The notes below the pieces were generated by a model. The model did not search any database. It was not told the origin of the DNA and was given only the letters and a program-made list of their open reading frames with translations. Both the position numbers and the translations under genes were made by a program. From sequence record NZ_CP027230.1: a stretch of 28,678 nucleotides of DNA; one strand, given 5' to 3'. Of the stretch, positions 1,196-26,722 are shown piece after piece; position 1 is the stretch's first letter; each line of letters begins with the position of its first letter. This DNA comes from a plasmid.

Positions 1196-3517
1196 ATGAA
1201 AAGATTATTACTTTTTGCAATTATTGCTATTGTAGCTGTTTCTCTTAGTATAGTGGGGTGCAGTAAAGACAAAGAACAAGACCCTATACAATGGAAGTTT
1301 GAGGTAAAAGCTGATAAAGACACTATTTCAAATTTAGCGCTTAATGATATTGTTCCTGTAACATACGTTGTAAACAGAAAATACAACGAAGGGGCTACTA
1401 TGCAATACAGGGTAAACCTTGATAAATCACAAGGTTTTACTATCTATGATAATAACGACAACGAAGTTAAAGATTTTGGTTTTCAAAATCTAACTTCTGA
1501 TACTTTAAAATTAAAGTATAAAGGTACCTTTCAAGGTATTCATTCTTTAAGTGTTACGTTTAAAAACTCAAAAGATGAAAGAGTGGATAAAAGGGTGACG
1601 TTTGATTACAATATAAAAAATAAAAATAAGACATTTTCTATTGAACAAAAAGCAATTACAAACCTTGATAATATAGTGCAAGGGCAAGATGTTGAATTGT
1701 CTTTTGAAATAAAGGAAGAGGCGCAGACGCAGGAAAATTTTCAAATACAGTTTCTAAGTTTTGATGCAGCTGATGAAAGATTACAAAAATCAAAGATATA
1801 CCTAAATAACAATGAAGTACAAACAAATAAGTGGTATTCTATAAGCAAAGATTTTATTAATAAAATACAATTAAATTCATTTAATGCAGGAACAAAAAAA
1901 TTGGTATATGAACTTAAAAATTCTGTTTATACTGAAAGAAAAGAACTTGATATAAATGTAAAAAACGCTGTGATATCACTTAAAAACATAACTCTAAAAG
2001 CAGATGATATTTATATAAACGAACCTTTCAAAATTGAGTGTGAAGTAGAAAAAACACATCCTAATAATAAAAAAATAGAATATAAAACTTGGTTATCATC
2101 AGGAAATCCAGCTAATTTTAATTTTCTTACAATTACATATAAAAGTTTGGAAATTAATGATGGTAACTTGTTTCCATTAGAATTTAAAGCAAATAGTGCT
2201 ATAGAATATGTTTTAAACATTCAGGTAAAAGACGAATATGGCAATGAGAGTGAAGTAAAAAGAATCTCAATAATAGTAAAGAACAACGATTTTACCATTG
2301 AGCAAATACTAAATACTAACTTGGAAAATGTAGAACAAGGACAAGAAGTTAAGATAATTCTTAAAGCTAAAGAAGATCGTCTTAGTAATGAATTGTTTGA
2401 AATACAATTTTTAGGGTTTGATACAACCGATTCAAACTTACAGAATTCAAAAATTATTTTCAATAATGAGGAAATACAACTTAAAAAGTGGTATACATTT
2501 AATAAAAACTCAGATAATCAATTAAGTATTAAAAGTTTTAAATCAGGTAGTAAAAAGTTAATTTATCAAATAAAAAATTCATCTATTACCAAGAGTAAAG
2601 AAGTAGATATTAATATCTTGCCTGAGCAATTTAATGTAAAAGCGGAAACTCCTTTTAAAAAAATTGTTCCTGAAAAGCCTTTTAACTTTAAACTGATTAT
2701 TGAGACAAAAAATCATAATAAAGAAGTAAGATATTTTATTCATTCTAATATGAAAAAACTAATATATGATAACAAAGTTTATTTAAAAGGAGAAAATATC
2801 CATATTCAATTTGATAATGAAAAAGAAAAAAAAGAAATTGAACTTCAAGGAATTATTGATATGAATACAAAAAATTCTGATATAATAGTTAACAATTCTG
2901 ATAACATATCTAAATCTACAACTCCTAATGCAGTCATATTAACACCTTTAACAATTAATAAAATAAGTTTGTTAGGTAAATCTTATTTTAATATTAACGA
3001 TCATTATGTTCCAACTGGTTTAATCCGAAGTGTTTTTTATATAGGGAAGAAAACTTCACTTAAAAAAGATGAAGATATTCAAAAGGAAAATATTATGTAT
3101 AAAATAATATTTCAAAAAGAAGAAAAAAATGGGAAAGGGAAAATAGAAAAAATTGAAAAAGAATTATCTCATATAGATATATTTGAAACCCCTAGTCCTA
3201 ATTTCACTTCTGAAGAAGAAAAACATGATTTGGAGCCTGATTATGAACGTAATAATTATGAAAATGTGAAAATTTTATATGAAAGTGAATGGAGAAACGA
3301 TGGACTTGCATATAAAGATAATGTATCTATTGAAATATATTATAAGAATAAAAAAGTATATGAAGCTAAAGATATAAAAGGATTTTATAAAAACTTATTA
3401 TCTATTAATCCTTCAACTAATAAAACTTATAGCAAAAATTTTTGGAATATATTACAATCAGTAAAAGTAGCGGAAGACAGGATTTTCTATGAAAACTACG
3501 ACCATATTTCCAAGTAG
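1196..3517 (+). CDS. Large surface lipoprotein with two tandem ~115-aa repeat domains
   Basis: Signal peptide plus lipobox (LSIVGCS). Two homologous blocks: ...IEQKAITNLDNIVQGQDVEL...FQIQFLSFDAADERLQKSKIYLNNNEVQTNKWY... versus ...IEQILNTNLENVEQGQEVKI...FEIQFLGFDTTDSNLQNSKIIFNNEEIQLKKWY... K/N/E-rich, 773 aa. Confidence 0.6.
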   Translation: MKRLLLFAIIAIVAVSLSIVGCSKDKEQDPIQWKFEVKADKDTISNLALNDIVPVTYVVNRKYNEGATMQYRVNLDKSQGFTIYDNNDNEVKDFGFQNLTSDTLKLKYKGTFQGIHSLSVTFKNSKDERVDKRVTFDYNIKNKNKTFSIEQKAITNLDNIVQGQDVELSFEIKEEAQTQENFQIQFLSFDAADERLQKSKIYLNNNEVQTNKWYSISKDFINKIQLNSFNAGTKKLVYELKNSVYTERKELDINVKNAVISLKNITLKADDIYINEPFKIECEVEKTHPNNKKIEYKTWLSSGNPANFNFLTITYKSLEINDGNLFPLEFKANSAIEYVLNIQVKDEYGNESEVKRISIIVKNNDFTIEQILNTNLENVEQGQEVKIILKAKEDRLSNELFEIQFLGFDTTDSNLQNSKIIFNNEEIQLKKWYTFNKNSDNQLSIKSFKSGSKKLIYQIKNSSITKSKEVDINILPEQFNVKAETPFKKIVPEKPFNFKLIIETKNHNKEVRYFIHSNMKKLIYDNKVYLKGENIHIQFDNEKEKKEIELQGIIDMNTKNSDIIVNNSDNISKSTTPNAVILTPLTINKISLLGKSYFNINDHYVPTGLIRSVFYIGKKTSLKKDEDIQKENIMYKIIFQKEEKNGKGKIEKIEKELSHIDIFETPSPNFTSEEEKHDLEPDYERNNYENVKILYESEWRNDGLAYKDNVSIEIYYKNKKVYEAKDIKGFYKNLLSINPSTNKTYSKNFWNILQSVKVAEDRIFYENYDHISK

Positions 3518-3550
3518 TTTTACCTTATTTCTACTCTATTCCTACCGAAC

Positions 3551-3580
3551 AAAAACCACCCCATAAAGGGGTGGTTTTTT
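3551..3580 (+). terminator. Rho-independent terminator after the lipoprotein gene
   Basis: AAAAACCACCCC-ATAA-AGGGGTGGTTTTTT: GC stem followed by a T-run, 34 nt after the stop codon. Confidence 0.7.
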
Positions 3581-3807
3581 AATTTTGAAAGCAATTCACA
3601 ACCAAAATATAAGGGAGAAGGTGTATGTTATAATTTTTAATACTTCCCTTATATTTATTTTGTTGTAAAATTAGGTTTTTGTAATAATAACTTAATAAAG
3701 TTAGCTATGATGATGAACTTAACTTTAAAAGTTGGTGCAAAGTTACAAAAATATTTTTACTTACACAAACATTCATACTTTATTTTTTTTCACAATTTTT
3801 TTCTTCA

Positions 3808-4934
3808 CTTCCTGCCCCTTAAAATAGGAGTAAAACATTTGTGGTGAGCCAGCCCCAAACTTTTGGACGCTGACATCACTGATCACAAATGTTTTACAAC
3901 CTTAATAGTGGTGTTGCTCACCAAAAATAAGCAACCTCGTACACAAGGTACAGAGGTAGCTTTTTTTTGGCTTCACAACAACCAAAAGCGGTGTAAAGAG
4001 GGGTGAAAAGACCTTGCCCCCACTCGTGGACGGCAAGACCTTTTTTCACCCCTCTTTACAGTGTAGTTTCTAAGCCCACCCACCGCCCTTTTGCCCCTCC
4101 CCTAACCCCTCCCCACAGGGGAGGGGAACAGACCCGAATAAGAATAAGGTGACTCATTTTTACATCGTTTTTGATTAACAGAAAAGTGTAAGTTATTATT
4201 TATCAACTAATTAAGTATTTTCTTTAACCTGGCATCAAGTAGCCTATTTATAAGCTCTTTTTTTTATTTTGGGCGTTACCACAAGGGTCGGGCTATACTC
4301 TGCAATAAAGCTCTGAGAAGTCAAGAAAATTAAGCGTTTTAGAAGTCTTCCACTAAAGTGGCAAGCCTTCTCCTCCGCTGATTTTCTAAAGCCTTCTCAT
4401 TTACTTTATTTCCGTTCCTATCCCTAACGCGGGGGGACAGTTACCAAGTCCCTATTTTGTTCTTTTTTTTCCTTAATTTTTTCTCACTTCAAATCATCTT
4501 CTTTAGCTCTCATTTTTCTACTGCAAAGGTATGGCGGGGGGAAAACACAGCAAAAAAAATGAGGCTTTCATTAATTTTTTTGTCCTCGCCAGAGGCTGCG
4601 GAAAAAAATTAACGAACCTTCCTAATTTTTTTATGCTTTAGTTTTACGAGAACCCCCCGCCCTGATAGAGCAGTAGAAAAAGAGGCAAAAGAAGATTTAG
4701 GGTTTGAGGCTTTGGGGGAAAAAATATTGTTTGCTTTTTATTTTCTCTTCTCTTTTTTGTCCGAGCCGGACGCGCTTGAAAAACTTTGTTTTTCTGTATA
4801 TATCAAACCGAAAATGATGAAAGAAAAAATATATGGCAAATGTTATATATGTAACAAAATATTTATGAAAAATATACATAATAATTTGTGTATATTATTT
4901 ATTTGTCGTATATTTGCAGTGTAATAATAATTTA
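3808..4934 (+). repeat. Copy 1 of a duplicated structured GC-rich noncoding module. Part A is 3808-4154. A unique 315-bp insertion lies at 4155-4470. Part B, about 4472-4934, ends in a sigma-A promoter
   Basis: Near-identical to 7321-8166 (parts A and B), with an extra AATAAG and the 315-bp insertion. Contains a 14-bp perfect inverted repeat (3830-3843 / 3884-3897), a hairpin plus T8 (about 3935-3968), an interrupted inverted repeat of about 26 bp (3992-4061), a C4TC4-ACA-G4AG4 hairpin (4106-4126), and a long-range helix CTACTGC..GGCGGGGGG / CCCCCCGCC..GCAGTAG (4518-4676). Confidence 0.85.
4875..4922 (+). promoter_or_regulatory. Bacteroidetes sigma-A-type promoter (-33 TTTG, 20-nt spacer, -7 TATATTTG) plus conserved leader GTGTAATAATAATTTA; drives the J-domain gene
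   Basis: TACATAATAATTTG-N20-TATATTTGCAG matches the Bacteroides consensus TTTG-N19-21-TAnnTTTG. It is one of five near-identical copies in the window. Confidence 0.6.
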
Positions 4935-4948
4935 ATAATGAATGCTTT

Positions 4949-5428
4949 ATGAAGTACTTTAACGATTGCAAGACAACAGAAGAAGCAAAAAAATTATTTA
5001 AAAAACTTGCTTTTGAGAACCACCCAGACAGGGGAGGAGATAATACGATAATGCAAGCAATAAATGCAGAATATCAGTTTTTTATTGCTAAATATGCCAC
5101 AGGTACAGCGGAAGAAATTAATGAACAATTTAACGAGCAATTGCGTTATATGGACATCATTGGTAAACTTGCAAACCTTGTGGGTATAGAGGTGGAGCAG
5201 GTGGGGGAATGGCTTTGGATAAGTGGCAACACTTATGCACATCGAGAGCAATTGAAGTCTATAGGCTGCTTGTTTGCGCCTGTTAAGAAATTGTGGTACT
5301 ATAGAGATGAAGAGCATAAGAAGAGCAGCGGAGGAACCTCCCAGAGTATGGAAGACCTTAGAACCAAGTATGGCAGCTTACATATTAATTTAAACAAAGT
5401 ACGCAGCACCTATATAGACCATAAGTAA
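4949..5428 (+). CDS. J-domain (DnaJ-like) protein, 159 aa
   Basis: N-terminus TTEEAKKLFKKLAFENHPDRGGD...MQAINAEYQF: J-domain helix II/III with the invariant HPD tripeptide. The C-terminal ~90 aa has no recognisable similarity. Confidence 0.7.
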   Translation: MKYFNDCKTTEEAKKLFKKLAFENHPDRGGDNTIMQAINAEYQFFIAKYATGTAEEINEQFNEQLRYMDIIGKLANLVGIEVEQVGEWLWISGNTYAHREQLKSIGCLFAPVKKLWYYRDEEHKKSSGGTSQSMEDLRTKYGSLHINLNKVRSTYIDHK

Positions 5429-5476
5429 AAACAATCACACACAACATTCTTTATAAGAAAAAAGTATCGAAATTTA

Positions 5477-5524
5477 TACATAATAATTTGCATATATTAT
5501 TTATTTGTCGTATCTTTGTCCTAT
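5477..5524 (+). promoter_or_regulatory. Second copy of the conserved sigma-A promoter (TTTG-N20-TATCTTTG), upstream of ssb
   Basis: TACATAATAATTTGCATATATTATTTATTTGTCGTATCTTTG, nearly identical to 4875-4916. Confidence 0.55.
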
Positions 5525-5601
5525 CAAAATGAGATAATAAAGTAAGTACTTTGACATACTGGGATAGCTTAAAAGCTTATACAAAACACACACTAAAAAG
5601 T

Positions 5602-5615
5602 GTTCCACGTGGAAC
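5602..5615. promoter_or_regulatory. Perfect 14-bp palindrome GTTCCACGTGGAAC in the ssb leader (candidate operator)
   Basis: Exact dyad symmetry read directly from the sequence. It lies 40 bp upstream of the ssb ATG and downstream of the promoter. Confidence 0.4.
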
Positions 5616-5654
5616 GTAAACAACTGATTATTAATAATTTAAATATTTTTTATT

Positions 5655-6263
5655 ATGTTTTCAATTACATTTATCGGACGCGTTACAAAGGACGCAACAG
5701 CAAAGCAGTTTGAGAAATCAAATGTGCTTAATTTTACAGTAGCCGTTAATTTTCCTACACAAGGAAAAGACGAGAACGGCGATACCATTTATGACACAAT
5801 TTATTTGCCGTGTTCAAAATGGAACTTACAAGGCGACCTTAATAAGGTTTGTGAACGCTTGAAAAAAGGTGCGCGGATAGCGGTACAAGGGTCTAAGTTG
5901 GAGGTTACAGTTCAGCAAGACCAGAATACAGGGAGGGAATACACAAATTTAAATGTAGTTGTGCAATCCTTTGAAGTGTTAGATTATCCAAAACAACCGC
6001 AAGCCGTTACACAGGGGTACGTACAACAGCAAGGGCAGCAGCTGCCACAGGGAGCTCCTCAACAAGCGTTTTACCCACCGCAAGGACAACAACAAGCACC
6101 ACAAGGACAACAACAAGCACCACAGGGGCAGGGGTTTTTTGCTAGAATGAGCGAAGAACAGGTAGCAATGCAAGCCCAAGCATTTGAGCAAGTACCGCCT
6201 GAAGTACGACACACTTACCAACAAGTACCGCAGGGACTTGAAGACGTAGATTTATCCTACTAA
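5655..6263 (+). CDS. ssb: Single-stranded DNA-binding protein, 202 aa
   Basis: OB-fold pattern hhhGRVTKDA...NFTVAVN...W......L.KG..IAVQG.L conserved against bacterial SSBs. Gln/Pro-rich flexible C-terminus with tandem PQGQQQA repeats and an acidic tip (EDVDLSY). Confidence 0.75.
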   Translation: MFSITFIGRVTKDATAKQFEKSNVLNFTVAVNFPTQGKDENGDTIYDTIYLPCSKWNLQGDLNKVCERLKKGARIAVQGSKLEVTVQQDQNTGREYTNLNVVVQSFEVLDYPKQPQAVTQGYVQQQGQQLPQGAPQQAFYPPQGQQQAPQGQQQAPQGQGFFARMSEEQVAMQAQAFEQVPPEVRHTYQQVPQGLEDVDLSY

Positions 6264-6269
6264 ACAAAC

Positions 6270-6295
6270 GACCCGAGCAAGTCGCTAAACTGCTC
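6270..6295. promoter_or_regulatory. 26-bp conserved motif GACCCGAGCAAGTCGCTAAACTGCTC, copy 1 of 3 (others at 6630-6655 and 8214-8239)
   Basis: Copies 1 and 2 are identical 26-mers, each followed by CTTTTTT. Copy 3 has 2 mismatches. All three lie immediately upstream of a gene or operon start. The motif contains the inverted repeat GAGCA-N11-TGCTC. Confidence 0.5.
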
Positions 6296-6327
6296 TTTTT
6301 TGTAATAATAATTTATTTTTTAAAGCT

Positions 6328-6618
6328 ATGACAACGAAAGAAAAAATAAAAGCAATTCGAGAACAATTTAAGCTGCTAGGGTATAATAATAGAAAAATAT
6401 CCGTTACAGATGGGGGCGGAACTCTTGAAAGTAGTATAAGGGTGCGCGTTAAATTCGTTCCTATTCTTGAACAAATCCAAGAAATTAAAGAGGTTGCGGA
6501 AAAGTTTAGGCAAGTTCTTTATGATGAAGCAACAGGTGAGATATTAGCGGGAGGTAATACTTTTGTAAATGTTTCTTATCCAAGCAACGAAGACGAGAGA
6601 AAAAGGTATTTTGTTTAA
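6328..6618 (+). CDS. Hypothetical protein, 96 aa (leading-region cassette)
   Basis: ORF preceded by the 26-bp motif and the GTAATAATAATTTA leader. No recognisable domain. Confidence 0.45.
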   Translation: MTTKEKIKAIREQFKLLGYNNRKISVTDGGGTLESSIRVRVKFVPILEQIQEIKEVAEKFRQVLYDEATGEILAGGNTFVNVSYPSNEDERKRYFV

Positions 6619-6661
6619 CCATAAGCCCCGACCCGAGCAAGTCGCTAAACTGCTCTTTTTT

Positions 6662-7279
6662 ATGAAATCAAAGAAAAAAATCATTTTCCATACAGGGCGC
6701 GGGGGGCGCTTTCACAATGGCGGTTATATAACTGCTAAAAAAATTATAGCTAATGACTTTGATGCAGGTGAGGCAGATAAGTTGGGGTATAATGTTTATT
6801 ACAACTATCAAGGCGAACCTTTCGATTTGCCCGCTACCCCAGAGGGGTGGGAAGGTATAGACCCACAAGAAATTAAAGTGCTCGATGGGGGAGGCGACGA
6901 GGTTTGTGACTATTCCGATATTTTAGCGGATTATGGCACAATGAATTTTGATAACGAATATGACGGTATTACGTGGAAGACTTTCGACTTATTAGAGGAA
7001 AGCGATTTGTTTGTAATGCTTCGCGACCTTACAACCTATGAATGTTATACTTTGTTTATAGAAAGCGATAAGTATAATTTCTACTTGTTAAAGTTACTTT
7101 TTTTAGATGGCAAACGGCTGAATTTGTCAGTGAGAGAAACCGCCGAGATATTAGCCGATGATTACCCTACCGACTTTGACGAACTTGTAAATTGTGGTCT
7201 TATTGAAGAATATGACCCAGAGGGGGGAGAATATTCGGTAGTTAAGGACGGTAAACGTTATCAACTTAATTGGATATAA
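6662..7279 (+). CDS. Strongly acidic hypothetical protein, about 205 aa (start adjusted to the ATG at 6662; the ORF track began at 6569)
   Basis: The 6569 start would force the conserved intergenic 26-bp motif (6630-6655) to be coding and would overlap the upstream ORF. The ATG at 6662 follows the motif directly. The protein carries about 45 Asp/Glu and about 12 Lys/Arg in its C-terminal 175 aa. Confidence 0.5.
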   Translation: MKSKKKIIFHTGRGGRFHNGGYITAKKIIANDFDAGEADKLGYNVYYNYQGEPFDLPATPEGWEGIDPQEIKVLDGGGDEVCDYSDILADYGTMNFDNEYDGITWKTFDLLEESDLFVMLRDLTTYECYTLFIESDKYNFYLLKLLFLDGKRLNLSVRETAEILADDYPTDFDELVNCGLIEEYDPEGGEYSVVKDGKRYQLNWI

Positions 7280-7320
7280 CACCCGCACAGGGTACAAGGG
7301 CAAGGGCTTGTAAAATAGCC

Positions 7321-8166
7321 CTTCCTGCCCCTTAAAATAGGAGTAAAACATTTGTGGTGAGCCAGCCCCAAACTTTTGGACGCTGACATCACTGATCACA
7401 AATGTTTTACAACCTTAATAGTGGTGTTGCTCACCAAAAATAAGCAACCTCGTACACAAGGTACAGAGGTAGCTTTTTTTTGGCTTCACAACAACCAAAA
7501 GCGGTGTAAAGAGGGGTGAAAAGACCTTGCCCCCACTCGTGGACGGCAAGACCTTTTTTCACCCCTCTTTACAGTGTAGTTTCTAAGCCCACCCACCGCC
7601 CTTTTGCCCCTCCCCTAACCCCTCCCCACAGGGGAGGGGAACAGACCCGAATAAGGTGACTAAAATTAAAATACTTATAATTGCCAATTTATTTTTGTTT
7701 TCTCTTAATTTTTTCTCACTTCAAATCATCTTCTTTAGCTCTCATTTTTCTACTGCAAAGGTATGGCGGGGGGAAAACACAGCAAAAAAAATGAGGCTTT
7801 CATTAATTTTTTTGTCCTCGCCAGAGGCTGCGGAAAAAAATTAACGAACCTTCCTAATTTTTTTATGCTTTAGTTTTACGAGAACCCCCCGCCCTGATAG
7901 AGCAGTAGAAAAAGAGGCAAAAGAAGATTTAGGGTTTGAGGCTTTGGGGGAAAAAATATTGTTTGCTTTTTATTTTCTCTTCTCTTTTTTGTCCGAGCCG
8001 GACGCGCTTGAAAAACTTTGTTTTTCTGTATATATCAAACCGAAAATGATGAAAGAAAAAATATATGGCAAATGTTATATATGTAACAAAATATTTATGA
8101 AAAATATACATAATAATTTGTGTATATTATTTATTTGTCGTATATTTGCAGTGTAATAATAATTAT
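7321..8166 (+). repeat. Copy 2 of the duplicated structured GC-rich noncoding module (part A 7321-7661; part B about 7704-8166), ending in a sigma-A promoter upstream of the parA/traA operon
   Basis: Direct sequence identity with 3808-4154 and 4472-4934. Local GC is about 50%, against about 30% for the surrounding DNA. Confidence 0.85.
8107..8156 (+). promoter_or_regulatory. Third copy of the conserved sigma-A promoter (identical to 4875-4922) at the 3' end of repeat copy 2, upstream of parA/traA
   Basis: Identical sequence TACATAATAATTTGTGTATATTATTTATTTGTCGTATATTTGCAGTGTAATAATAATT. Confidence 0.55.
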
Positions 8167-8281
8167 TAATAAAACAGAGCATTGTAAACACGCCTGTAAT
8201 GTAATTGAAGACTGACCCGAGTAAGTCACTAAACTGCTCATTTATATAGTATTTGTAATAACTTCTTAATAATTAAACACT

Positions 8282-9031
8282 ATGAATGTATTAGTAAATT
8301 TAAACCACAAAGGAGGGGTAGGAAAAACTACCAATACTATTCATATAGGCGCAGAGCTTATGAATAGGGGCTATAAAGTTTTATTGATTGATGCAGACAA
8401 TCAATGTGATTTAACAGTAGGCATAGGGGTAAAAGAAAGCCGGTATACAATACAAAATTTTTTGAATTGTGAACAAGGTTATAGGGTAGCTACAGTGTCT
8501 GAAAATTTTCATGTTCTTGCTGGACATCCTAATTTTCATGCAAACAGGTATAACCGATTAGCTTTGGGTAAGGCTATAAATCATTATAACCTTGCAGGTT
8601 TTTATGATTTTATTCTTGTTGATGTACCGCCTACAGGTATTAATCCTGAAGCTACATCGCCCGCAGAGCTGGCTTTGTGCGCTTGTAATTACTTTTTTGT
8701 ACCTTTGCAGGCCGATATGTTTTCAATTAAAAATATAAACGCTTTTTTAGGTAGGGTGCTTGAAATGAGAAAATACAATCCTAACATGAAGTTTTTAGGT
8801 ATGTATTTTAGTAATGTACTTACTACCACAAGCGTGTTTAAAGAATATTACCAAATGTTACAAGAACAGGCTCCTGATAATCTTTTTACTACTTATATTC
8901 GTAGAGATACTGAAGTGGTAAAAGCTGCTATTTTAGGACAAACTATCTTTGAATATAACGAGAAGTGTCGAGCGAGTGATGATTTTAAAAGTTTGGTAAG
9001 TGAAATTTTAAGTAGAATTGAAAAAATATAA
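8282..9031 (+). CDS. ParA/MinD-family ATPase (conjugative-transposon TraA-like partition ATPase)
   Basis: Deviant Walker A KGGVGKTT at the N-terminus, ...LLIDADNQCDLT..., ...ILVDVPPTG... 249 aa. Typical first gene of a Bacteroidetes tra operon. Confidence 0.8.
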   Translation: MNVLVNLNHKGGVGKTTNTIHIGAELMNRGYKVLLIDADNQCDLTVGIGVKESRYTIQNFLNCEQGYRVATVSENFHVLAGHPNFHANRYNRLALGKAINHYNLAGFYDFILVDVPPTGINPEATSPAELALCACNYFFVPLQADMFSIKNINAFLGRVLEMRKYNPNMKFLGMYFSNVLTTTSVFKEYYQMLQEQAPDNLFTTYIRRDTEVVKAAILGQTIFEYNEKCRASDDFKSLVSEILSRIEKI

Positions 9032-9944: not shown

Positions 9945-10163
9945 ATGAATAATTGTACTTACTTTGTCATATTGTTATTGCTATTCTTAGGGATAGCAGT
10001 ACACAATATGTATAGGCTCAATAGAGCGCGTAAAGACGCGCTAAACCGCCTGCACCACCTCGTAACAAGGAACCTTGCAGGCGAGCTGCTAACATCGGAA
10101 GAACTCACCGAGCTGACAGATTTAAGTAAAACTTTTGAACAAATTAAAAATAAATTCATATGA
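9945..10163 (+). CDS. Small protein with an N-terminal TM helix, 72 aa
   Basis: ORF preceded by a TTTTTTTCTTTCAAC motif. Hydrophobic N-terminus FVILLLLFLGIAV. Its end overlaps the next ORF's start (ATGA). Confidence 0.3.
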   Translation: MNNCTYFVILLLLFLGIAVHNMYRLNRARKDALNRLHHLVTRNLAGELLTSEELTELTDLSKTFEQIKNKFI

Positions 10164-11293
10164 AAGAAGAAGATAACAAAATGCCCGAAAACGTCATTGT
10201 AAGAGAAAAGTTTAATACGGACTATATAGATAGGGACGTTATTAGACTTAGCAATGATTTTATTGAAGACTTTTTTTTATCAGAAGAAACGTCTTTAGAA
10301 TTATCTATTAACTGTTATAAAATCATTTTTGAGATTATGAAAATAATCCACAATGAACAGTTTAAACTTGAAGAAAATAAGCGTAAGGGACAATTAAGGT
10401 TGTTTGAAGATGATTTTTTAACTGAAAACAACACTTATTTGTTAATTAAAATTAGAAACTCTAAGATAACAAGAGATACTAAGTTATTGGAAGAAGCGTA
10501 CGAAAAATTAGTTAAATACAAACAGAAATGGTACAAAGCAACTAATTCTAAAGGAAAAAAAATAAAGACCTTTGGGGGGCTCATTTCAAATGTTAATTAT
10601 GAAGACTTTGAAAGAGGTTATACGAGATTTTTAGTTAGTTCTTACTGGCTTCAAAAAATGTTAGATTTAGCAAACAAAGGTTATAACAATTTTCTTGCTG
10701 GAATTATTAATCAAACTAATAGTTCAAAGAATATTTTTACTGCAATATGGTTAACTCATAGGGCAGTAGACAGCGAACGTTTAACGGTTCGGTATCTTAA
10801 TGAAACTTTTGGTGTAAATTGTAAAACAGCGAGAGACTTTTGTAATAAGTTTTTAAAACTGCGAAAAAGTTTTTTAGACAAAAATGCGCTAACATCTTTT
10901 AATTATAAAGCGGACGGAGCGGGGCACGTTATCATTGAAAGGTATAAAAATAAGACTCTAAACCAAGAAGGTCTAATAACGCCTGAAAGTACAAATGAAC
11001 AGCAAATAAAAACATACATAGCAAGTTACTATAAGAAAAGGCATAAGCTAACAAATGAACAACACGCTTTTATTAAGAGAGAATTAAAGAATAGTCCTAA
11101 GAACAAGAAACTTTTAACAGAAGCGTATAATAGGCTTGTAGTTTTCACAAAGTTAGGCTGCAATGGTGAATATAAAGTAATGACCGATTATGTAGGAATT
11201 AAGTTTATTTTACACTTCCAACAATTCATCAATACTCTTTGCCAAGAAGAAGGTATACCAAAGGAATTGTGGCCAAATTTTGGTAAAAAATAG
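10160..11293 (+). CDS. Hypothetical 377-aa protein; candidate replication initiator (Rep), inferred from the adjacent iterons
   Basis: No diagnostic motif recognised. It lies immediately upstream of the terminator, the 6x iteron array, the AT-rich tract and the primase gene. Confidence 0.3.
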   Translation: MKEEDNKMPENVIVREKFNTDYIDRDVIRLSNDFIEDFFLSEETSLELSINCYKIIFEIMKIIHNEQFKLEENKRKGQLRLFEDDFLTENNTYLLIKIRNSKITRDTKLLEEAYEKLVKYKQKWYKATNSKGKKIKTFGGLISNVNYEDFERGYTRFLVSSYWLQKMLDLANKGYNNFLAGIINQTNSSKNIFTAIWLTHRAVDSERLTVRYLNETFGVNCKTARDFCNKFLKLRKSFLDKNALTSFNYKADGAGHVIIERYKNKTLNQEGLITPESTNEQQIKTYIASYYKKRHKLTNEQHAFIKRELKNSPKNKKLLTEAYNRLVVFTKLGCNGEYKVMTDYVGIKFILHFQQFINTLCQEEGIPKELWPNFGKK

Positions 11294-11380: not shown

Positions 11381-11580
11381 AATTGCAAGATACCACGTAC
11401 AATAAAAATTAATATGCTTATTTTCAACACAATAGAAAACCAATAAAAAGTTATCAACAAATTTCAATTGCAAGATACCACGTACAAATTTCAATTGCAA
11501 GATACCACGTACGGAATTGCAAGATACCACGTACGGAATTGCAAGATACCACGTACAGGCAATTGCAAGATACCACGTAC
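11381..11580 (+). repeat. Iteron array: 6 direct copies of the 20-mer AATTGCAAGATACCACGTAC (candidate oriV or Rep/partition binding sites)
   Basis: Exact copies at 11381, 11466, 11493, 11515, 11537 and 11561. The last five are spaced 22-27 bp apart, about two helical turns. Confidence 0.8.
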
Positions 11581-11940
11581 GGAAAAATTATTATAAAATA
11601 TTGATTAACATTGTTTTAAAGCGTATTTTTTCACTCGCCAAAATTATAGTTATTATATATAAAAAGTAATTACTAAAATTTTTAGTGACTTTTTATATTT
11701 CATCATTAAAAACAAAAAAATTTAAAAAAAATCAAAACGCGATTTTCAAAAAAGGAGCAAAAAAATTTTGCAAAAAGCCAAAACTAAAAAAATGATATTA
11801 CCACCAAAATAGTCAAAACTTAAAATAAAGCCATTAAACGGCAAAATTTATTTGCAAGTATCTTTTATCGCCAGAGGCGATAAAGCACACTAAAAAAGGC
11901 TATTTTTAAGTAAAAACAAAGTTTATACTTAAAAAAGTCC
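11581..11940. other. AT-rich tract (A/T runs, about 80% AT) adjacent to the iterons; candidate DNA-unwinding element
   Basis: Composition and position between the iterons and the primase promoter. Contains the small hairpin TATCGCC-AGA-GGCGATA at about 11868-11884. Confidence 0.4.
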
Positions 11941-11978
11941 TTACATTAATGATGAAAGAAAAAAGAAAAAGAATTTTA

Positions 11979-12030
11979 TACATAATAATTTGCGTATATT
12001 ATTTATTTGTTGTATCTTTGCCGTGTAATA
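11979..12030 (+). promoter_or_regulatory. Fourth copy of the conserved sigma-A promoter/leader, upstream of the primase gene
   Basis: TACATAATAATTTGCGTATATTATTTATTTGTTGTATCTTTGCCGTGTAATAATAATTTA (TTTG-N20-TATCTTTG). The upstream ATGATGAAAGAAAAAA element is also shared with the copy at 4813-4830. Confidence 0.55.
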
Positions 12031-13429: not shown

Positions 13430-13890
13430 ATAATAAATAAATTTGTACCCTTAAAATTTTGTAGAGCTCAATGCTAAGAAGAGTGCCATTTTTTTTAAAT
13501 GGTGCTCTTTTTTCTTTCACTACTTACGGTTATTACAGGGCTGTTTTTTATCTATAAGGTCTCTTACTTTTTACTTGCCATTTTTCTTCTCGTCACAACT
13601 TTTATTCTGTGCTAATCTTCTTTTTTACTGGTGCCCTTATAGGGGCTTTTTTAAAAGTGTATTAGCCTTTTTTTTGTAGTGTCTCGGTCGTGACAGTAGG
13701 GAGCAAGAGGGAACGGCGGAATAAAATTCCGCAGTTCGTTAGTTGTTTGGTAATGAATGGTTTAATGATTTTATGAATATTATAGAAAGTTCAAATAAAG
13801 TTTTTAAAAGTTTTTTTCTTTCACTATTTTCTCTAAATTATTGTTTTTCAAAATTTATTTTGTAACTTTGCAAAGTTAAAATAAAGTTTT
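13430..13890. other. Candidate oriT region upstream of the mob genes
   Basis: A 460-bp noncoding stretch immediately 5' of the Mob accessory/relaxase operon. Contains several inverted repeats (AGAGTGCCATTTTTTTTAAATGGTGCTCT near 13470-13500; GCGGAAT-AAA-ATTCCGC at 13716-13732). Position only; no nic site identified. Confidence 0.3.
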
Positions 13891-13892
13891 TT

Positions 13893-14552
13893 ATGAATAA
13901 AGTAATTAAACCAACATTAAATGTATATCCTCAAACAAAGGAATTGGTTAATAAGGTTAAAGATGTATATAAATATAAAACAATAGATGATTGTATTAGT
14001 GAAGTCTTTACTTTTATTGATAAAAATAATATCAATCCTACAGAACCATTTAAGGAAGAAACTCCTACAGAAGTCTATAGGAATGATATACGTATGTACT
14101 TTGATGATTTGCGAAAATTTCAACGTGACGACAGTCAGAGTTTGCGCAAATTTTTGGGGGCATTAGAGAAGACTTATTTAAAACCACTCATTAATAAATT
14201 AGAAAATAAAGATGTATTACAGGCGGTTGATTTAGCTAAGCCGACCCCTCCAGAGCCCACTACTTCTTTGAGTGATTTAATAGCTAAAAATAACGCTAAT
14301 CCTACTGCTGATAGCGCTTTCACTTCTGTAGAAAATTCGTCTGAAGTGGAAAAATTGAAATCTAAAATTGAAGCCTTGAAGAAGGCAAATAAAGAGGCTT
14401 TGGAACACATTGATATTTGTAAAAATGTGTTAAAAGAAATTTCTAATAATATGTCTTACATAAAGTCATTTACAGGTTCAGGTATGCTATGTAAAATTGA
14501 TATGAAGAGAGATGTTTTTTTAGAATTAATGAACCGCACAGGAGTTATATAA
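13893..14552 (+). CDS. Putative relaxosome accessory (Mob) protein, 219 aa
   Basis: Its stop overlaps the relaxase start (ATAATG). C-terminal coiled-coil heptads (EVEKLKSKIEALKKANKEALEH). Confidence 0.35.
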   Translation: MNKVIKPTLNVYPQTKELVNKVKDVYKYKTIDDCISEVFTFIDKNNINPTEPFKEETPTEVYRNDIRMYFDDLRKFQRDDSQSLRKFLGALEKTYLKPLINKLENKDVLQAVDLAKPTPPEPTTSLSDLIAKNNANPTADSAFTSVENSSEVEKLKSKIEALKKANKEALEHIDICKNVLKEISNNMSYIKSFTGSGMLCKIDMKRDVFLELMNRTGVI

Positions 14553-17500
14553 TGTACGTTAAATTTACAGCTCATAAACCTGCTCAAAGTGGTATGTCTT
14601 CGCGTGCCATTTTTGACTATTTGGATAAAGAGAACCAAGCTCAAAGAGATAGGGATATACAGGAGTGGCGCAATGGTGATGTATCAGAAGAACGTAGGGA
14701 AGAGTTACTACAGAATTTTTACAATTATGATAACTTATTTAATCAAGATTTTGACTTAAATAATTTAGATGATAAGAAAAATCATATATCAGTTGAAACC
14801 GCTTTTAGAATGATTGATGAAAACAAAGGAACTCGAAACTCTAAGGAAGCCAATTTTTATATGCTCAATGTTAGTCCTTCTGCTAAAGAATTGCAACATT
14901 TAGAAAAACAGGCGGAAGAAATTTTAGCCGAAAGAGGGCTTAATAAGGACGAGGTAATTAACAATGGCAATAAGGACATGCTGGATTATTACCAAGACCA
15001 AAAGCAACAGATTTTAAATGCGCAACTCAAATCTTATGCGCAGGATATAATGAATGAATATGCCCACCAAATGGATAGGGAGATATACGCCAACCAAGAT
15101 AAATTGCCTTCTGATAAAGAAAGGCGCGAAATGCTTCCAGAGGTAGAACGTAGATATAATGAATATTTACAAGAAGCAGGGGTGAAAATATCAACCCAAG
15201 AAAATGAAGCACCCTTATATCATAACTTAGAATATAGAAAAGTCACCGAATTAGATAAAGGGGCTGTTTTTTCTATTTATGATAGCAGCAGAGATGCTAA
15301 TTATAATCTTTATGTACCTAAAGAGAAGTACGAATTAGAAGCAGGAACGCAGCGTGTTAGTGTACTGGAAGAATATTTTTCAGACAAATATTCTGATATA
15401 GTTAAAGGGGCTGAATACAATAATCAAATTATTAGCGTTAGTGATAATGCTACAGTTGATTATAGTAAAGAACGATTTAAAGATTATAGTTGCGATGATA
15501 AGGTGGTAATTAATTACAATTACAAGGAGTTTGACAAGGAACTAAAGTTATATTTTTCTAAGAACGAGTGTGATTTTGTAAATGGTAATTACCAAGTTAA
15601 AGAAAAGGTTTTTAATGATAAGGTATATCAAGCAAAAACCACTTTTCTTAACAAACAATTTTCCGACGAGCGCCAAAGAATCTTTGATGAAAAAGCCAAA
15701 GAATTAGGCTATAATTTTACAAAGGTTACTGATGAGAATGGGAAGCAAACCTACCTTGATCCTGATAAGGTGCCTAAAGGGGCGGAACTTAAAAAGTTTA
15801 ATACGGAAATATCCATCGAATTTAATAAATACTTAGTGGAAAAAAAGTATTTGCCCGCCCGCGAAAAGTTTCAAATTACTGATTGGAATACCCAACAGTA
15901 CAATGTAACTTTTCTAATGCAGACGGAAAAAGCGGTGCTTACAAGAATTGAGGATAACAGGTTAAATGAACCACTACAGGTGTGGATGCCTAAATTTGCT
16001 ATTAAAAGCGATATAGATGTTTCAGACCCTCCAAAGGAGAGCCAAGCAAACATCATCGGCCAGCTGTATGAAAATAAGATTAACGAGCGGTTAGAACTGC
16101 AAAACAGTAAGGTTTTAGAGTTTGATAATTACAGTGAAATCACTTCTGTTAAGGAACGTTCGGTAAACAAAGAAAGTGTTATTTTTAATTACCAAATTGA
16201 AGGACTTGAAAAGCCCTTGTCCTTTCATATTGAAAGGGAAAAATTAGACTTTTCAGAAGGTCAATATACAATGAGTCGTATCGAGTTTGAAACCCGGTAC
16301 AAAGCTCATTTGTTTGATCACTGCAAAGAGGAATTTAAATCTGATTACGACAGAATACAGGCGAGTGTAGCCGAAAGACTTTCAGGCGAGCAACAAAGCA
16401 AAATTGAGCGTGAAGCTGATAAGGAATTTAAGAACTTCCTTATTGAAAAAAATATATATCCTCCTGATGAGAGAGACGATCGTTTTAAAGTGCAGGGTGA
16501 AATAGATAAAGCAAACGAAAATTCGTCTTTGCTAACTATCAAACCAGAAGGTTATAATGAAGAGTTTAAACTATGGGTGAATAATCGTGATTTTTCTAAA
16601 GGTGAAAAAGGTGAAATATTTTTTAAAGATAAAGAACAAGCACAAAATCTTATTGATAAGGCGATAGAGCGAGATAAAGAACAAAAGCAGCAGGTTCATA
16701 TTAAATATGATAGTTTTACAGTTGAGGAAATACAACTTAAAGAGGGAGAGCCTTATGATAGAATGTGTGTTTTTGAAAGAAGGGAGGAAGGTTTGAAAGA
16801 CCCTATTAAATTTACTTTCAAAGAAAGTGAATTACAAAGGAATGGAAACGAAGTAACGGTACCTAAATACAAATTGGATTATAGGGTTCAGGGAGCGAAA
16901 GAAAAAGCTATATTAGCAGAACATGGAGAGGTTAAAAATAAAATTAAAGAACAGGTTTGGCAAGAACACGGCTTTGATACTACCAAGCGCAAGTTAGAGG
17001 GTAAGGATCTTATGTGGTTTGGAAAGATAGAAACAGAACGCTCTTATAGTTATAAAGATAAACAAGTGTTAGAAAATAGGGAGACGATGAAGCAAATTAA
17101 CGAGTTAAAGGCGCAGCCTAAACCCGATACTAATAAAATTAAGGAATTAGAAAGTCAATTGCATAGGGATAAGTATAGCGGTGAAATTATTAAGGAGGGG
17201 CTAAAAAAACAAGGTAATCAGACTCATATTCACATTGTAGTATCTCGCCACGACAAAACAAGCGTGAACCCTAAAGATAAGGTTTCTATGAGTCCGATGT
17301 CCAACCAAAAGGACAGTCAAATGAATAATGGTGCTAAAGTAGGTTTTAATAGGGATTCTTATTTTCAAAGGACGGAAGAAATTTTTGATAAAAAATTTTC
17401 TTATGATCGCCCTTTGGAGCAAACATATCAGTATCATAAAGGACAAGTTAAGGAGCAGTCTTTGGGCGACCAAGTACAGGGATATGCTAAAGGTAGAGCC

Positions 17501-17710
17501 CAGAGCGAGGTTAAACAATTCCTTGAAAAGCATACAGGAATAGCAGAAGCCAAGCGAGAACTTGATCCTATTAAGGAATTTAAAAAAGAATTTAGTAATA
17601 TTCCTCTACCAACTTCTATACCTAAGACCAAATTTGAGGCAGTTAAATCTATGGTTAATACTGTTAAAAAGATTATGGGACAAACTTCAGAGCAAGGAAT
17701 GGGGTATTAA
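14552..17710 (+). CDS. MobA/MobL-family (MOBQ-like) relaxase, 1052 aa, with a very large internal region
   Basis: N-terminus MYVKFTAHKPAQSGMSSRAIFDYLDKEN parallels RSF1010 MobA MAIYHLTAKTGSRSGGQSARAKADYIQRE (catalytic-Tyr motif I). FYMLNVSPS resembles motif II. The HUH triad THIHIVVSRHD is at aa 891-901 (nt 17222-17254). Confidence 0.65.
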   Translation: MYVKFTAHKPAQSGMSSRAIFDYLDKENQAQRDRDIQEWRNGDVSEERREELLQNFYNYDNLFNQDFDLNNLDDKKNHISVETAFRMIDENKGTRNSKEANFYMLNVSPSAKELQHLEKQAEEILAERGLNKDEVINNGNKDMLDYYQDQKQQILNAQLKSYAQDIMNEYAHQMDREIYANQDKLPSDKERREMLPEVERRYNEYLQEAGVKISTQENEAPLYHNLEYRKVTELDKGAVFSIYDSSRDANYNLYVPKEKYELEAGTQRVSVLEEYFSDKYSDIVKGAEYNNQIISVSDNATVDYSKERFKDYSCDDKVVINYNYKEFDKELKLYFSKNECDFVNGNYQVKEKVFNDKVYQAKTTFLNKQFSDERQRIFDEKAKELGYNFTKVTDENGKQTYLDPDKVPKGAELKKFNTEISIEFNKYLVEKKYLPAREKFQITDWNTQQYNVTFLMQTEKAVLTRIEDNRLNEPLQVWMPKFAIKSDIDVSDPPKESQANIIGQLYENKINERLELQNSKVLEFDNYSEITSVKERSVNKESVIFNYQIEGLEKPLSFHIEREKLDFSEGQYTMSRIEFETRYKAHLFDHCKEEFKSDYDRIQASVAERLSGEQQSKIEREADKEFKNFLIEKNIYPPDERDDRFKVQGEIDKANENSSLLTIKPEGYNEEFKLWVNNRDFSKGEKGEIFFKDKEQAQNLIDKAIERDKEQKQQVHIKYDSFTVEEIQLKEGEPYDRMCVFERREEGLKDPIKFTFKESELQRNGNEVTVPKYKLDYRVQGAKEKAILAEHGEVKNKIKEQVWQEHGFDTTKRKLEGKDLMWFGKIETERSYSYKDKQVLENRETMKQINELKAQPKPDTNKIKELESQLHRDKYSGEIIKEGLKKQGNQTHIHIVVSRHDKTSVNPKDKVSMSPMSNQKDSQMNNGAKVGFNRDSYFQRTEEIFDKKFSYDRPLEQTYQYHKGQVKEQSLGDQVQGYAKGRAQSEVKQFLEKHTGIAEAKRELDPIKEFKKEFSNIPLPTSIPKTKFEAVKSMVNTVKKIMGQTSEQGMGY

Positions 17711-25839: not shown

Positions 25840-26673
25840 ATGAAAAAAATATTATTTTTAACCATAGCTTTGTTTGCTATGGCAATACAAGCCCAAGAGA
25901 GTAAGAACGAAAAAACGGTAACTATAGATGTTAATACAGATATGTTTGTTCAGATTGTTTTTAAGACTCCTGTACAATCATTAAGGGTGGGAATGCCTAA
26001 TGTAGTAGAAGCTCAATATACTGAAAATGTAATAACAGTGCAGGCTTTGGCTGAAGAGCTCAAAACAAATCTTACTGTTAAAACTTCTGACGGACTTTAT
26101 TATTCTTTCATTTTGAAAGGGACAGCGGAAGTCCCAATTCTTTTTTATGAAATAAATCCATTGCAAGCAGTTAATGCAGAGGTTACTACAATTAATACAA
26201 GTAAAGAAAGTAATGGCAAGAAACAAGAGTATAAAACCTCAAAAAGTGTAGAAGAAAAAGTATTAGATAAATCAGGATATCTATCTAATAGAAATATAGC
26301 TGAATACAGAAAAATAGAACTTGGTATAAATGGTATTTATACCAATAATGGAAAGTTATATTTTCTTATGGAGGTGAGAAATAGAAGTAATATACATTAT
26401 AATGTAAGCAAACTTTCTTTTGTTACAGCTTCGATAAAAAAGGCTAAAAAACAAATAGACGCAGAGGAACAAGAATTTGAACCATTGTATTTTTATCCAG
26501 AGTTTACCGAGATAAAGCCCAAAGGGAAGGTTAAATTTGTCGCAGTATTTAATAAGTTTACACTTAACAACGACAAAGAAATGGAAATTACTTTAACAGA
26601 ACAAGACGGCGAGCGCGTTGTTAGGCTGCTTATCGATACGGAAACGATTAGTAATGCAGAAAATATAAAATAA
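25840..26673 (+). CDS. traN: TraN-like (VirB9-like) secreted protein, 277 aa
   Basis: Signal peptide MKKILFLTIALFAMAIQAQ. Position after TraM. Confidence 0.5.
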   Translation: MKKILFLTIALFAMAIQAQESKNEKTVTIDVNTDMFVQIVFKTPVQSLRVGMPNVVEAQYTENVITVQALAEELKTNLTVKTSDGLYYSFILKGTAEVPILFYEINPLQAVNAEVTTINTSKESNGKKQEYKTSKSVEEKVLDKSGYLSNRNIAEYRKIELGINGIYTNNGKLYFLMEVRNRSNIHYNVSKLSFVTASIKKAKKQIDAEEQEFEPLYFYPEFTEIKPKGKVKFVAVFNKFTLNNDKEMEITLTEQDGERVVRLLIDTETISNAENIK

Positions 26674-26682
26674 ATAATATAT

Positions 26683-26722
26683 ACATAATAATTTGTGTAA
26701 ATTATTTGTTGTATCTTTTGTG
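26683..26722 (+). promoter_or_regulatory. Fifth, more degenerate copy of the conserved promoter/leader
   Basis: TACATAATAATTTGTGTAAATTATTTGTTGTATCTTTTGTGCCATAATAATAATT. Spacer is shortened to about 16 nt. Confidence 0.4.

Follow-up and report, generated by a model that had tools for sequence, protein, structure and literature searches.

A duplicated hairpin with embedded Bacteroidota promoter boxes as a candidate single-stranded DNA promoter of a Capnocytophaga conjugative plasmid

While its second strand has yet to be made, a conjugative plasmid can already express its protective and establishment genes, and single-stranded DNA (ssDNA) promoters explain how. They have been defined so far only in enterobacterial plasmids, and large surveys used the E. 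coli −35/−10 consensus (PMC11541004). Bacteroidota are major gut and mouth carriers of conjugative elements and have a different promoter grammar; in the literature searched, we found no link between ssDNA promoters and this phylum. The window analyzed here, the whole 28,678-bp contig NZ_CP027230.1 of Capnocytophaga sp. oral taxon 878, is a Bacteroidota-type conjugative plasmid of the MPF-B/MobB class of Flavobacteriia with every gene on the plus strand. Two near-identical, highly structured noncoding modules stand upstream of two of its operons. What are they for? The reading that we favor, with a probability of about 0.5, is that the core hairpin of each module is an ssDNA promoter resembling the Frpo elements of plasmid F, built with Bacteroidota sigma-A boxes and flanked by accessory structures.

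The duplication, first noted in a preliminary description made from the letters of the window alone, is borne out by alignment. BLAST of copy against copy gives 100% identity over 335 nt and 98.6% over 485 nt; 3808–4107 and 7321–7620 are 100% identical, and 4456–4755 and 7688–7987 are 98% identical. Copy 1 (3808–4934, minus strand), delimited by repeat family and alignment, is complete and lies upstream of the J-domain/ssb operon; copy 2 (7321–8166, minus strand) lacks about 320 bp, comprising an AT spacer and the element termed E2 below, and lies upstream of the parA operon, the spacing of the two being 3.2–3.5 kb. The modules are GC-rich, as described earlier (0.40–0.50 versus about 0.23–0.30 in the flanks). 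The earlier judgment that they have no credible coding capacity also holds: all open reading frames (ORFs) are at most 70 aa long and of low complexity, and indels break the frames in relatives, so that coding was rejected. The length difference had been described as a 315-bp insertion in copy 1. It is instead a deletion in copy 2, because relatives keep the segment, including E2, in both copies.

Relatives were found via homologues of the J-domain protein (84–89% identity) and fall into three lineages (L003/L005, L004/L006 and L014/L016/L018), all syntenic with the window. The module is present at both positions in the two lineages in which both gaps were recovered, and in the lineages carrying it one copy stands before the J-domain/ssb operon and the other before the parA operon. 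Proteins identical to the flanking ones were found only on short assemblies that break at the repeat edges. Identity to the window is 93–94% for the core, 90–97% for hairpin C, 87–98% for E2 and 77–95% for the promoter/operator box. The core exceeds both the silent sites of the adjacent J-domain gene (81–88% identity overall, 61–78% at third codon positions) and the flanking spacers (44–74%). The module is therefore a series of conserved islands (a three-hairpin unit, E2, the core hairpin and the promoter/operator box) among fast-evolving spacers. Identity between module copies is 97–100% within one plasmid and about 77% between plasmids, which points to an old duplication whose copies evolve in concert. 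The preliminary suggestion of a recombination-prone repeat accords with this concerted evolution and leaves the conservation unexplained. Integron attC-like sites and a rolling-circle single-strand origin (sso) were rejected as the identity of the module on sequence grounds.

The core hairpin and its embedded promoter

The core hairpin (4500–4692, minus strand; conserved core 4518–4676, copy 2: 7750–7908) is about 160–185 nt long, and its helix is formed by CTACTGC..GGCGGGGGG pairing with CCCCCCGCC..GCAGTAG. Folded as ssDNA, a check proposed in the preliminary description, the minus strand of 4500–4700 reaches −50.7 kcal/mol (z = −9.8), with promoter boxes inside the stem. These boxes form a sigma-A promoter, TTTG-N19-TACCTTTG, that was found by consensus search on the minus strand at 4524–4554 (copy 2: 7756–7786). 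It is identical in all lineages and agrees with the Flavobacteria sigma-A consensus, TAnnTTTG at −12 to −5 (PMC9723704). In the fold, the −33 box and the spacer are paired, the spacer including a 9-bp G/C stem, and the −7 box TACCTTTG forms one side of the only 8×8 internal loop of the hairpin, with TCTATCAG opposite. A stem of at least 10 bp follows the loop, and the other arm has no promoter box. The box-bearing arm is the 3′ arm of the minus-strand hairpin, and a polymerase leaving at the hairpin base would copy the minus strand toward 4949 in copy 1 or 8282 in copy 2. Intrinsic terminators were rejected as an explanation of the core, a T run being present on neither of its strands.

A screen of related DNA (340 kb, 730 TAnnTTTG boxes) found 16/16 flank pairing, a −33 element and an 8×8 bubble together at these sites alone; the flank-pairing test replaced a count of paired promoter bases, which did not discriminate in AT-rich DNA. 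Across four lineages, the window included, 97.5% of the cells of the core alignment are paired, compared with 54–62% when the partners are slid. Helices 2–5 are 100% paired in all four, with zero pair-breaking substitutions. One pair reads AU, UG, CG and UA in the four lineages, and apart from the hairpin tip the core is almost invariant.

This anatomy recalls the F plasmid, whose Frpo1 and Frpo2 are hairpins of the transferred strand (T-strand) that rebuild sigma-70 boxes. The two lie about 5 kb apart with 92% identity; Frpo2 is the one ahead of ssb, and early expression of the genes that follow each hairpin depends on it (PMC9849209). The leading genes of F lie on the plus strand and point toward the origin of transfer (oriT), as in the layout of the window, and the F region upstream of ssb, folded for comparison, gives a long T-strand hairpin (Frpo2, z = −6.4). 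The core module shares with the Frpo and ssi elements of F and ColIb-P9 (PMC9849209, PMC11541004) a long imperfect hairpin on the template strand of leading-region genes (presumed here from the layout), boxes on the arm that sends polymerase toward those genes, a position upstream of ssb, two near-identical copies a few kilobases apart, and conventional duplex promoters that follow. It differs in its boxes (−33 TTTG and −7 TAnnTTTG rather than −35 TTGACA and −10 TATAAT), in hairpin length (about 160–185 nt versus about 330 nt for Frpo) and in the clean 8×8 bubble that holds the −7 box. A linear promoter scan of Frpo2 found none, in contrast to the perfect linear consensus here. Sequence similarity is absent: blastn in distant mode with 3760–4960 against PLSDB, F (NC_002483) included, returned no match. 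As far as sequence can tell, in fold, orientation of the boxes and paired copies the core is like Frpo, yet non-homologous.

Read in this way, an oriT near 13.7 kb would send the minus strand 5′ to 3′ into the recipient, with genes arriving ahead of their promoter; counting downward from there, about 5.8 kb would precede copy 2 and about 9 kb copy 1. The core would then fold into a hairpin of about 185 nt whose 3′ arm offers a duplex TTTG (−33), the 9-bp G/C stem as spacer and TACCTTTG (−7), the last held open in the 8×8 bubble so as to mimic an open complex. Host RNA polymerase would start near the hairpin base, at about 4674 (copy 2: 7906), and copy the minus strand toward higher coordinates, yielding sense RNA for the J-domain/ssb operon from copy 1 and for the parA operon from copy 2 before a complementary strand exists. 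Once the plasmid is duplex, the hairpin would be lost and the ordinary promoter/operator box 210 nt downstream would take over. A change of TACCTTTG to TACCGGGG would be expected to abolish ssDNA transcription from the minus strand.

The same RNA could also prime complementary-strand synthesis. The complementary-strand origins ssoA, ssoU and those of M13 and G4 are ssDNA hairpins at which host RNA polymerase or primase makes primer RNA, and RNA begun at the core hairpin could likewise prime the complementary strand toward oriT. Those origins give short primers and drive no operon expression; no RSB or CS-6 motifs of an sso were seen here, though neither was searched for. In contrast to rolling-circle plasmids, the window has an iteron array (11465–11584), and no rolling-circle Rep was seen.

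The hairpin units and E2

To the left of the core lies the unit, composed in order of hairpin H1, a linker, hairpin T, a linker, hairpin C, a G-run linker and a C4TC4 hairpin. It is present once in the window and as two tandem units in relatives. Its linkers and apical loops are conserved, whereas its stems have been replaced and still pair. All dyads listed in the preliminary description lie at the positions given there, and they are conserved in homologous plasmids; a lack of such conservation was among the outcomes that it had named as refuting.

Hairpin H1 (3829–3901, minus strand; copy 2: 7342–7414) has as its outer stem a 14-bp perfect inverted repeat (3830–3843/3884–3897) around a 40-nt loop, and carries a conserved apical hairpin, GCC-G-UCC..GGG-GGC on the minus strand. 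Its stems are wholly different sequences between lineages with pairing kept, 9 of 27 pairs being compensatory, which indicates that selection has acted on pairing within the molecule rather than on a sequence recognized in duplex form. In hairpin T (3920–3970, minus strand; copy 2: 7433–7483), A and T runs, among them a T8 run at 3961–3968, flank the stem, and the loop is conserved and GUAGCCUGUGCGGA-like on the minus strand. Since the MAFFT alignment was not in structural register, its six copies were folded one by one; they give −18 to −29 kcal/mol with differing stem sequences. Hairpin T scores as terminator-like on the minus strand at 3949–3934 and, in copy 2, 7462–7447. Hairpin C (3992–4060, minus strand; copy 2: 7505–7573) is an interrupted hairpin of about 26 bp with the apical motif of H1; of its 27 pairs, three are invariant wobbles, G.U when read from the minus strand. 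Next come the G-run linker, with the minus-strand sequence GGGCGGTGGGTGGG.., and the C4TC4/G4AG4 hairpin, CCCCTCCCC-aca-GGGGAGGGG at 4106–4126; together they span 4074–4126 (minus strand; copy 2: 7587–7639), and conservation of GGGCGGTGGGTGGG extends to all units in all lineages. The minus strand of 4074–4114, GGGGAGGGGTTAGGGGAGGGGCAAAAGGGCGGTGGGTGGGC, fits the canonical G-quadruplex motif, so the linker could form a G-quadruplex.

No promoter consensus occurs within the hairpins of 3830–4126, and the Frpo analogy therefore does not explain their role. The ssDNA-promoter proposal of the preliminary description accordingly survives for one of its five listed structures, the helix at 4518–4676, by way of the inverted minus-strand promoter. 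Under the favored reading, the units, the G-run linker and E2 would be accessory elements 3′ of the core on the same strand, possibly protein-binding hairpins or roadblocks that delay complementary-strand synthesis. The units and G-runs lie just before the core in the direction of DNA synthesis on a minus-strand template; an ssDNA-promoter hairpin of F also stalls complementary-strand synthesis (preprint 10.64898/2026.01.09.698686), which suggests, speculatively, a roadblock role for the stable units and G-runs.

The STAXI motif (RF01728; Weinberg et al. 2010) invites comparison with the unit. It lies beside genes for SSB, topoisomerases and antirestriction proteins in mobile elements, and has been proposed as possibly ssDNA (PMC2864571). 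Two or three structured units follow one another in tandem there, and H1-T-C occurs once or twice here, between the topoisomerase/tra block and the ssb operon; STAXI differs in forming a pseudoknot instead of three hairpins with conserved linkers, and in belonging to another phylum. The STAXI covariance model gave no match in 3500–8400 at E up to 5, and none in the relatives.

E2 (4275–4425, copy 1 only, minus strand) is a long branched hairpin closed by GCGTTA/TAACGC, with a consensus energy of −47.5 kcal/mol on the minus strand versus −38.8 kcal/mol on the plus strand; in L003 and L004 it carries a 37-nt self-pairing stem insert. It resembles the Rfam motif Flavo-1 (RF01705), which likewise occurs in Flavobacteriaceae: the E2 minus strand lines up with helices of the model and with its UAGCC, GAU.G.A.CGGAAAU and AUUG.AG.G.A.AGC..GA, and most conserved letters match over model positions 1–76, but with large insertions. 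The terminal stem of E2 is about 100 nt long versus 24 in Flavo-1, and 14 extra nucleotides follow UAGCC. The scores, 23.0 bits for L006 and 15.9 bits for the window, do not reach the gathering score of 42, and E = 0.01 was obtained only in a 301-nt search (0.4 in 11.7 kb). Right of the core, the alignment also reveals a small leader hairpin, GTCCG-AGC-CGGAC (4759–4771; copy 2: 7991–8003), which reads GTGCG-AGC-CGCAC in relatives, a compensatory swap of C:G to G:C.

The interior of the module differs among relatives in several further ways. L003 (8905–8990 and 9127–9185) and L006 (4440–4525 and 4663–4720) have iteron-like repeats of about 31 bp, AAAATGGCAACTTTTGTnnAGCGTCAAAAC, in the stretch from the units to E2; the window and L014 lack them. 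In copy b of L004 and L006, H1 and hairpin C have merged: the apical loop that they have in common, ccccctcattcttcggacggc, joins the 5′ half of the former to the 3′ half of the latter (L006 8160–8245 and L004 12600–12690), with the intervening part deleted; this is evidence for recombination between hairpins inside one unit. The lineages are mosaic: in L014 the AT spacer and E2 are like the window (90–98%), and the spacer and post-core region are like L003/L004 (88–92%), a pattern that indicates recombination between plasmid lineages inside the module.

Such exchanges bear on the view that the module acts only as duplex DNA or is largely selfish, its palindromes being cruciforms or binding sites for partition, regulation or recombination proteins, or else captured repeats resembling repetitive extragenic palindromes or miniature inverted-repeat transposable elements that gene conversion keeps identical, with no single-stranded role. 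The duplication of hairpin units and their recombination between lineages, the concerted evolution of the copies, the iteron-like repeats in the modules of relatives, the likeness of E2 to a repeat widespread in Flavobacteriaceae and the dispensability of the module in distant relatives are all as expected for this view. However, the module occupies two syntenic positions only and has neither terminal repeats nor target duplications; 185,579 reference genomes and IMG/VR yielded no match to the unit pattern, IMG/VR gave none to the core pattern, and PLSDB, as stated above, held no match. Nor does it account for stems that are replaced with pairing kept, as in H1, for a wobble asymmetry that favors one strand, or for islands conserved above the silent sites of a neighboring gene. 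We consider it quite unlikely.

Folding strand, transferred strand and rival readings

The favored reading requires that the minus strand fold and that it be the strand transferred. Every wobble in the core and the main E2 helix, the one-sided changes of E2 included, reads as G.U on the minus strand but as A x C on the plus strand. In each of the four elements the minus strand also has the better consensus energy, by 5–6.5 kcal/mol. These observations speak against a plus-sense leader or 3′ untranslated region (UTR) RNA that would be made by read-through or from an unseen plus-strand promoter and regulate the downstream operons, as its helices would suffer the A x C breaks and the poorer energies. 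Its attractions are that the module lies directly upstream of two plus-strand operons, that 42 nt, without a strong terminator, separate the stop codon of the preceding gene from copy 2, and that the plus strand of copy 2 folds well too (z = −16.8, compared with −19.2 for the minus strand). A strong terminator at 3551–3579, however, precedes copy 1, and no plus-strand promoter consensus was found from there to the module. The chance that such an RNA explains the module seems to us very slight.

As to transfer, the candidate oriT is an inverted repeat at 13711–13737 (minus strand), about 160 bp upstream of the mobA-mobB(relaxase)-mobC operon. It is conserved, with a compensatory change in L019, and a different repeat occupies the same site in C. 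canimorsus. In characterized oriTs, the nick region lies 3′ of the inverted repeat on the transferred strand; here the better-conserved flank is the 3′ side on the minus strand. The genes for primase, ParA and SSB and that for the relaxase lie on opposite sides of the candidate oriT. By analogy, gene layout and candidate oriT suggest that the minus strand is transferred. Of what the preliminary description had proposed about oriT and polarity, the repeat upstream of the mob operon and the F-like layout stand as observations, and minus-strand transfer as what they suggest.

Several points weigh against the favored reading. The T-strand assignment combines analogy with a weak argument from flank conservation. 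The column count of 14 G.U to 1 A x C in minus-predicted helices partly depends on the strand used for helix prediction, the reciprocal count in plus-predicted helices being 9 to 6. The 23–45 kcal/mol minus-over-plus advantage and the G.U excess of the units were dropped as strand evidence because a shuffle control shows that base composition explains this asymmetry (z about 0). With the bulk asymmetry of the units compositional and the column count dependent on the prediction strand, sequence evidence for the minus as the folding strand is moderate. The core varies too little to give more than weak formal covariation: 58 of 69 pairs are invariant, and 30–64 of 500 shuffles reach the observed measures. 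The reading further presumes that the hairpin forms in vivo and that Bacteroidota RNA polymerase would use bubble and hairpin templates, and the Frpo analogy extends neither to the units nor to E2. The module is also absent from more distant relatives (61–67% identity) with the same genes and from loci anchored on ParA, C. canimorsus included, and neither set showed a homologous block or an equivalent bubble-promoter hairpin; the module is therefore not essential.

A last such point is that TTTG-N19-TACCTTTG is a perfect consensus in linear sequence and could simply be a leftward duplex promoter. The core should thus also be able to fire leftward when duplex, and the chief rival, or else an additional function, is therefore a structured noncoding RNA of minus sense. 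This transcript, of about 0.3 kb in copy 2 and up to about 0.9 kb in copy 1, would run over E2 and the units, which lie directly downstream of the promoter on the minus strand, and end at the hairpin-plus-T-run structures, where the terminator-like sites of hairpin T are found; the conserved hairpins would be RNA structure. The wobble pattern of E2 and the units favors the minus sense, variable stem lengths are typical of structured RNAs, and Rfam files Flavo-1 as a small RNA. What such an RNA leaves unexplained is the upstream arm of the core, its near-invariance, its compensated pair and the position of the −7 box in the bubble. The first 60–85 nt of the transcript would be its least conserved part (44–47%), and DNA repeats of iteron type are inserted between E2 and the units in relatives. 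The variation of unit number between 1 and 2 and the deletion of E2 from copy 2 argue for independent DNA modules rather than one RNA. Flavo-1 itself is of obscure function and may not be RNA, its matches in F. psychrophilum often being untranscribed or antisense. Rfam 15 at gathering score found no family in the window or 10 related loci; permissive scans of the window and relatives gave, the Flavo-1 look-alike aside, sub-threshold noise from eukaryotic small nucleolar RNAs and microRNAs. We judge the noncoding RNA unlikely as the main explanation; if it were true, the plasmid would carry a novel structured RNA that is related to Flavo-1, a motif itself unexplained.

The two activities could also be combined in one sigma-A promoter that switches direction, firing rightward into the ssb, J-domain and parA operons from ssDNA and leftward into the hairpin array from duplex DNA. 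The array may end the duplex transcript and, in the single-stranded phase, may block complementary-strand synthesis and so prolong early expression. We offer this as a tentative and rather improbable extension; it would make the core the first ssDNA promoter for a consensus not of the sigma-70 type and hint that Flavo-1-like motifs act as DNA and not as RNA.

Under the favored reading, the core would be a compact, sequence-defined candidate of about 200 nt. It suggests a rule by which other phyla could be searched: a conserved hairpin should have an inverted host promoter on one arm and a bubble that contains the melting box. It would also lend itself to the question whether hairpins of this kind double as replication roadblocks.

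Distribution and plasmid context

A single small clade, made up of oral and animal plasmids of the Capnocytophaga type, accounts so far for all occurrences of the module, and we do not claim a wide spread. A pattern scan of metagenomes gave one true match (L014) and one chance match in a GC-rich genome (L015). A scan for transfer RNA and transfer-messenger RNA genes found none. At the start of the L014 contig (1–420), a reading frame that we take, by eye, to be thiM-like (hydroxyethylthiazole kinase) runs directly into the C-terminal part of the large protein encoded before the module; this contig start is probably a chimeric assembly.

The gene order of the window begins with a topoisomerase fragment, TraO and a 773-aa protein, whose counterparts in relatives give weak or faint TraQ_transposon matches, followed by module copy 1. 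Then come the J-domain protein, SSB, an LPD29-like protein, a 236-aa protein and module copy 2, and after it ParA, four small ORFs, a 377-aa protein, a 22-bp iteron array and a Toprim primase. An inverted-repeat gap separates the primase from a MobA-like protein, the MobB relaxase, the coupling protein, TraG and the remaining tra genes. The MobB-family relaxase (14552–17710) is 1052 aa long, compared with only 363 aa for its C. canimorsus homologue. The family model matched in two stretches, best at residues 807–957, and residues 1–416 gave no PDB match; the protein appears to carry a large insertion or an N-terminal extension.

The iteron array consists of about five tandem 22-bp units, AATTGCAAGATACCACGTACGG, at 11465–11584, with a lone copy at 11382–11401. 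It lies just past the 377-aa ORF (10160–11293), for which no family match was found, and ahead of the primase promoter. Judged by position and repeat structure, the array and this ORF are a probable replication origin with its initiator.

The Bacteroidota −33/−7 consensus occurs 11 times in the window versus 2.06 expected, and the plus-strand occurrences head operons. As previously described, each module ends in such a promoter, which here forms an ordinary operon promoter with a palindromic operator-like box on the plus strand at 4855–4934 in copy 1 (−33/−7 at 4885–4916) and 8087–8166 in copy 2 (−33/−7 at 8117–8148). The box belongs to a family of five (4855–4903, 5457–5505, 8087–8135, 11959–12007 and 26662–26710), in which an internal palindrome, TATACAtaataatttgTGTATA, overlaps the −33 element. 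It looks like a plasmid-wide operator through which one repressor may govern the ssb, parA, primase and late tra operons. A decayed sixth promoter box with a 5′-UTR, tttgtaataataacttaataaagttagctATG, followed by a non-conserved 46-aa ORF, lies at 3650–3770, together with a minus-strand promoter consensus at 3769–3738. In distant relatives (L007–L011), the latter promoter heads divergent tra genes, and the sixth box and the minus-strand promoter therefore look like relics of a rearrangement.

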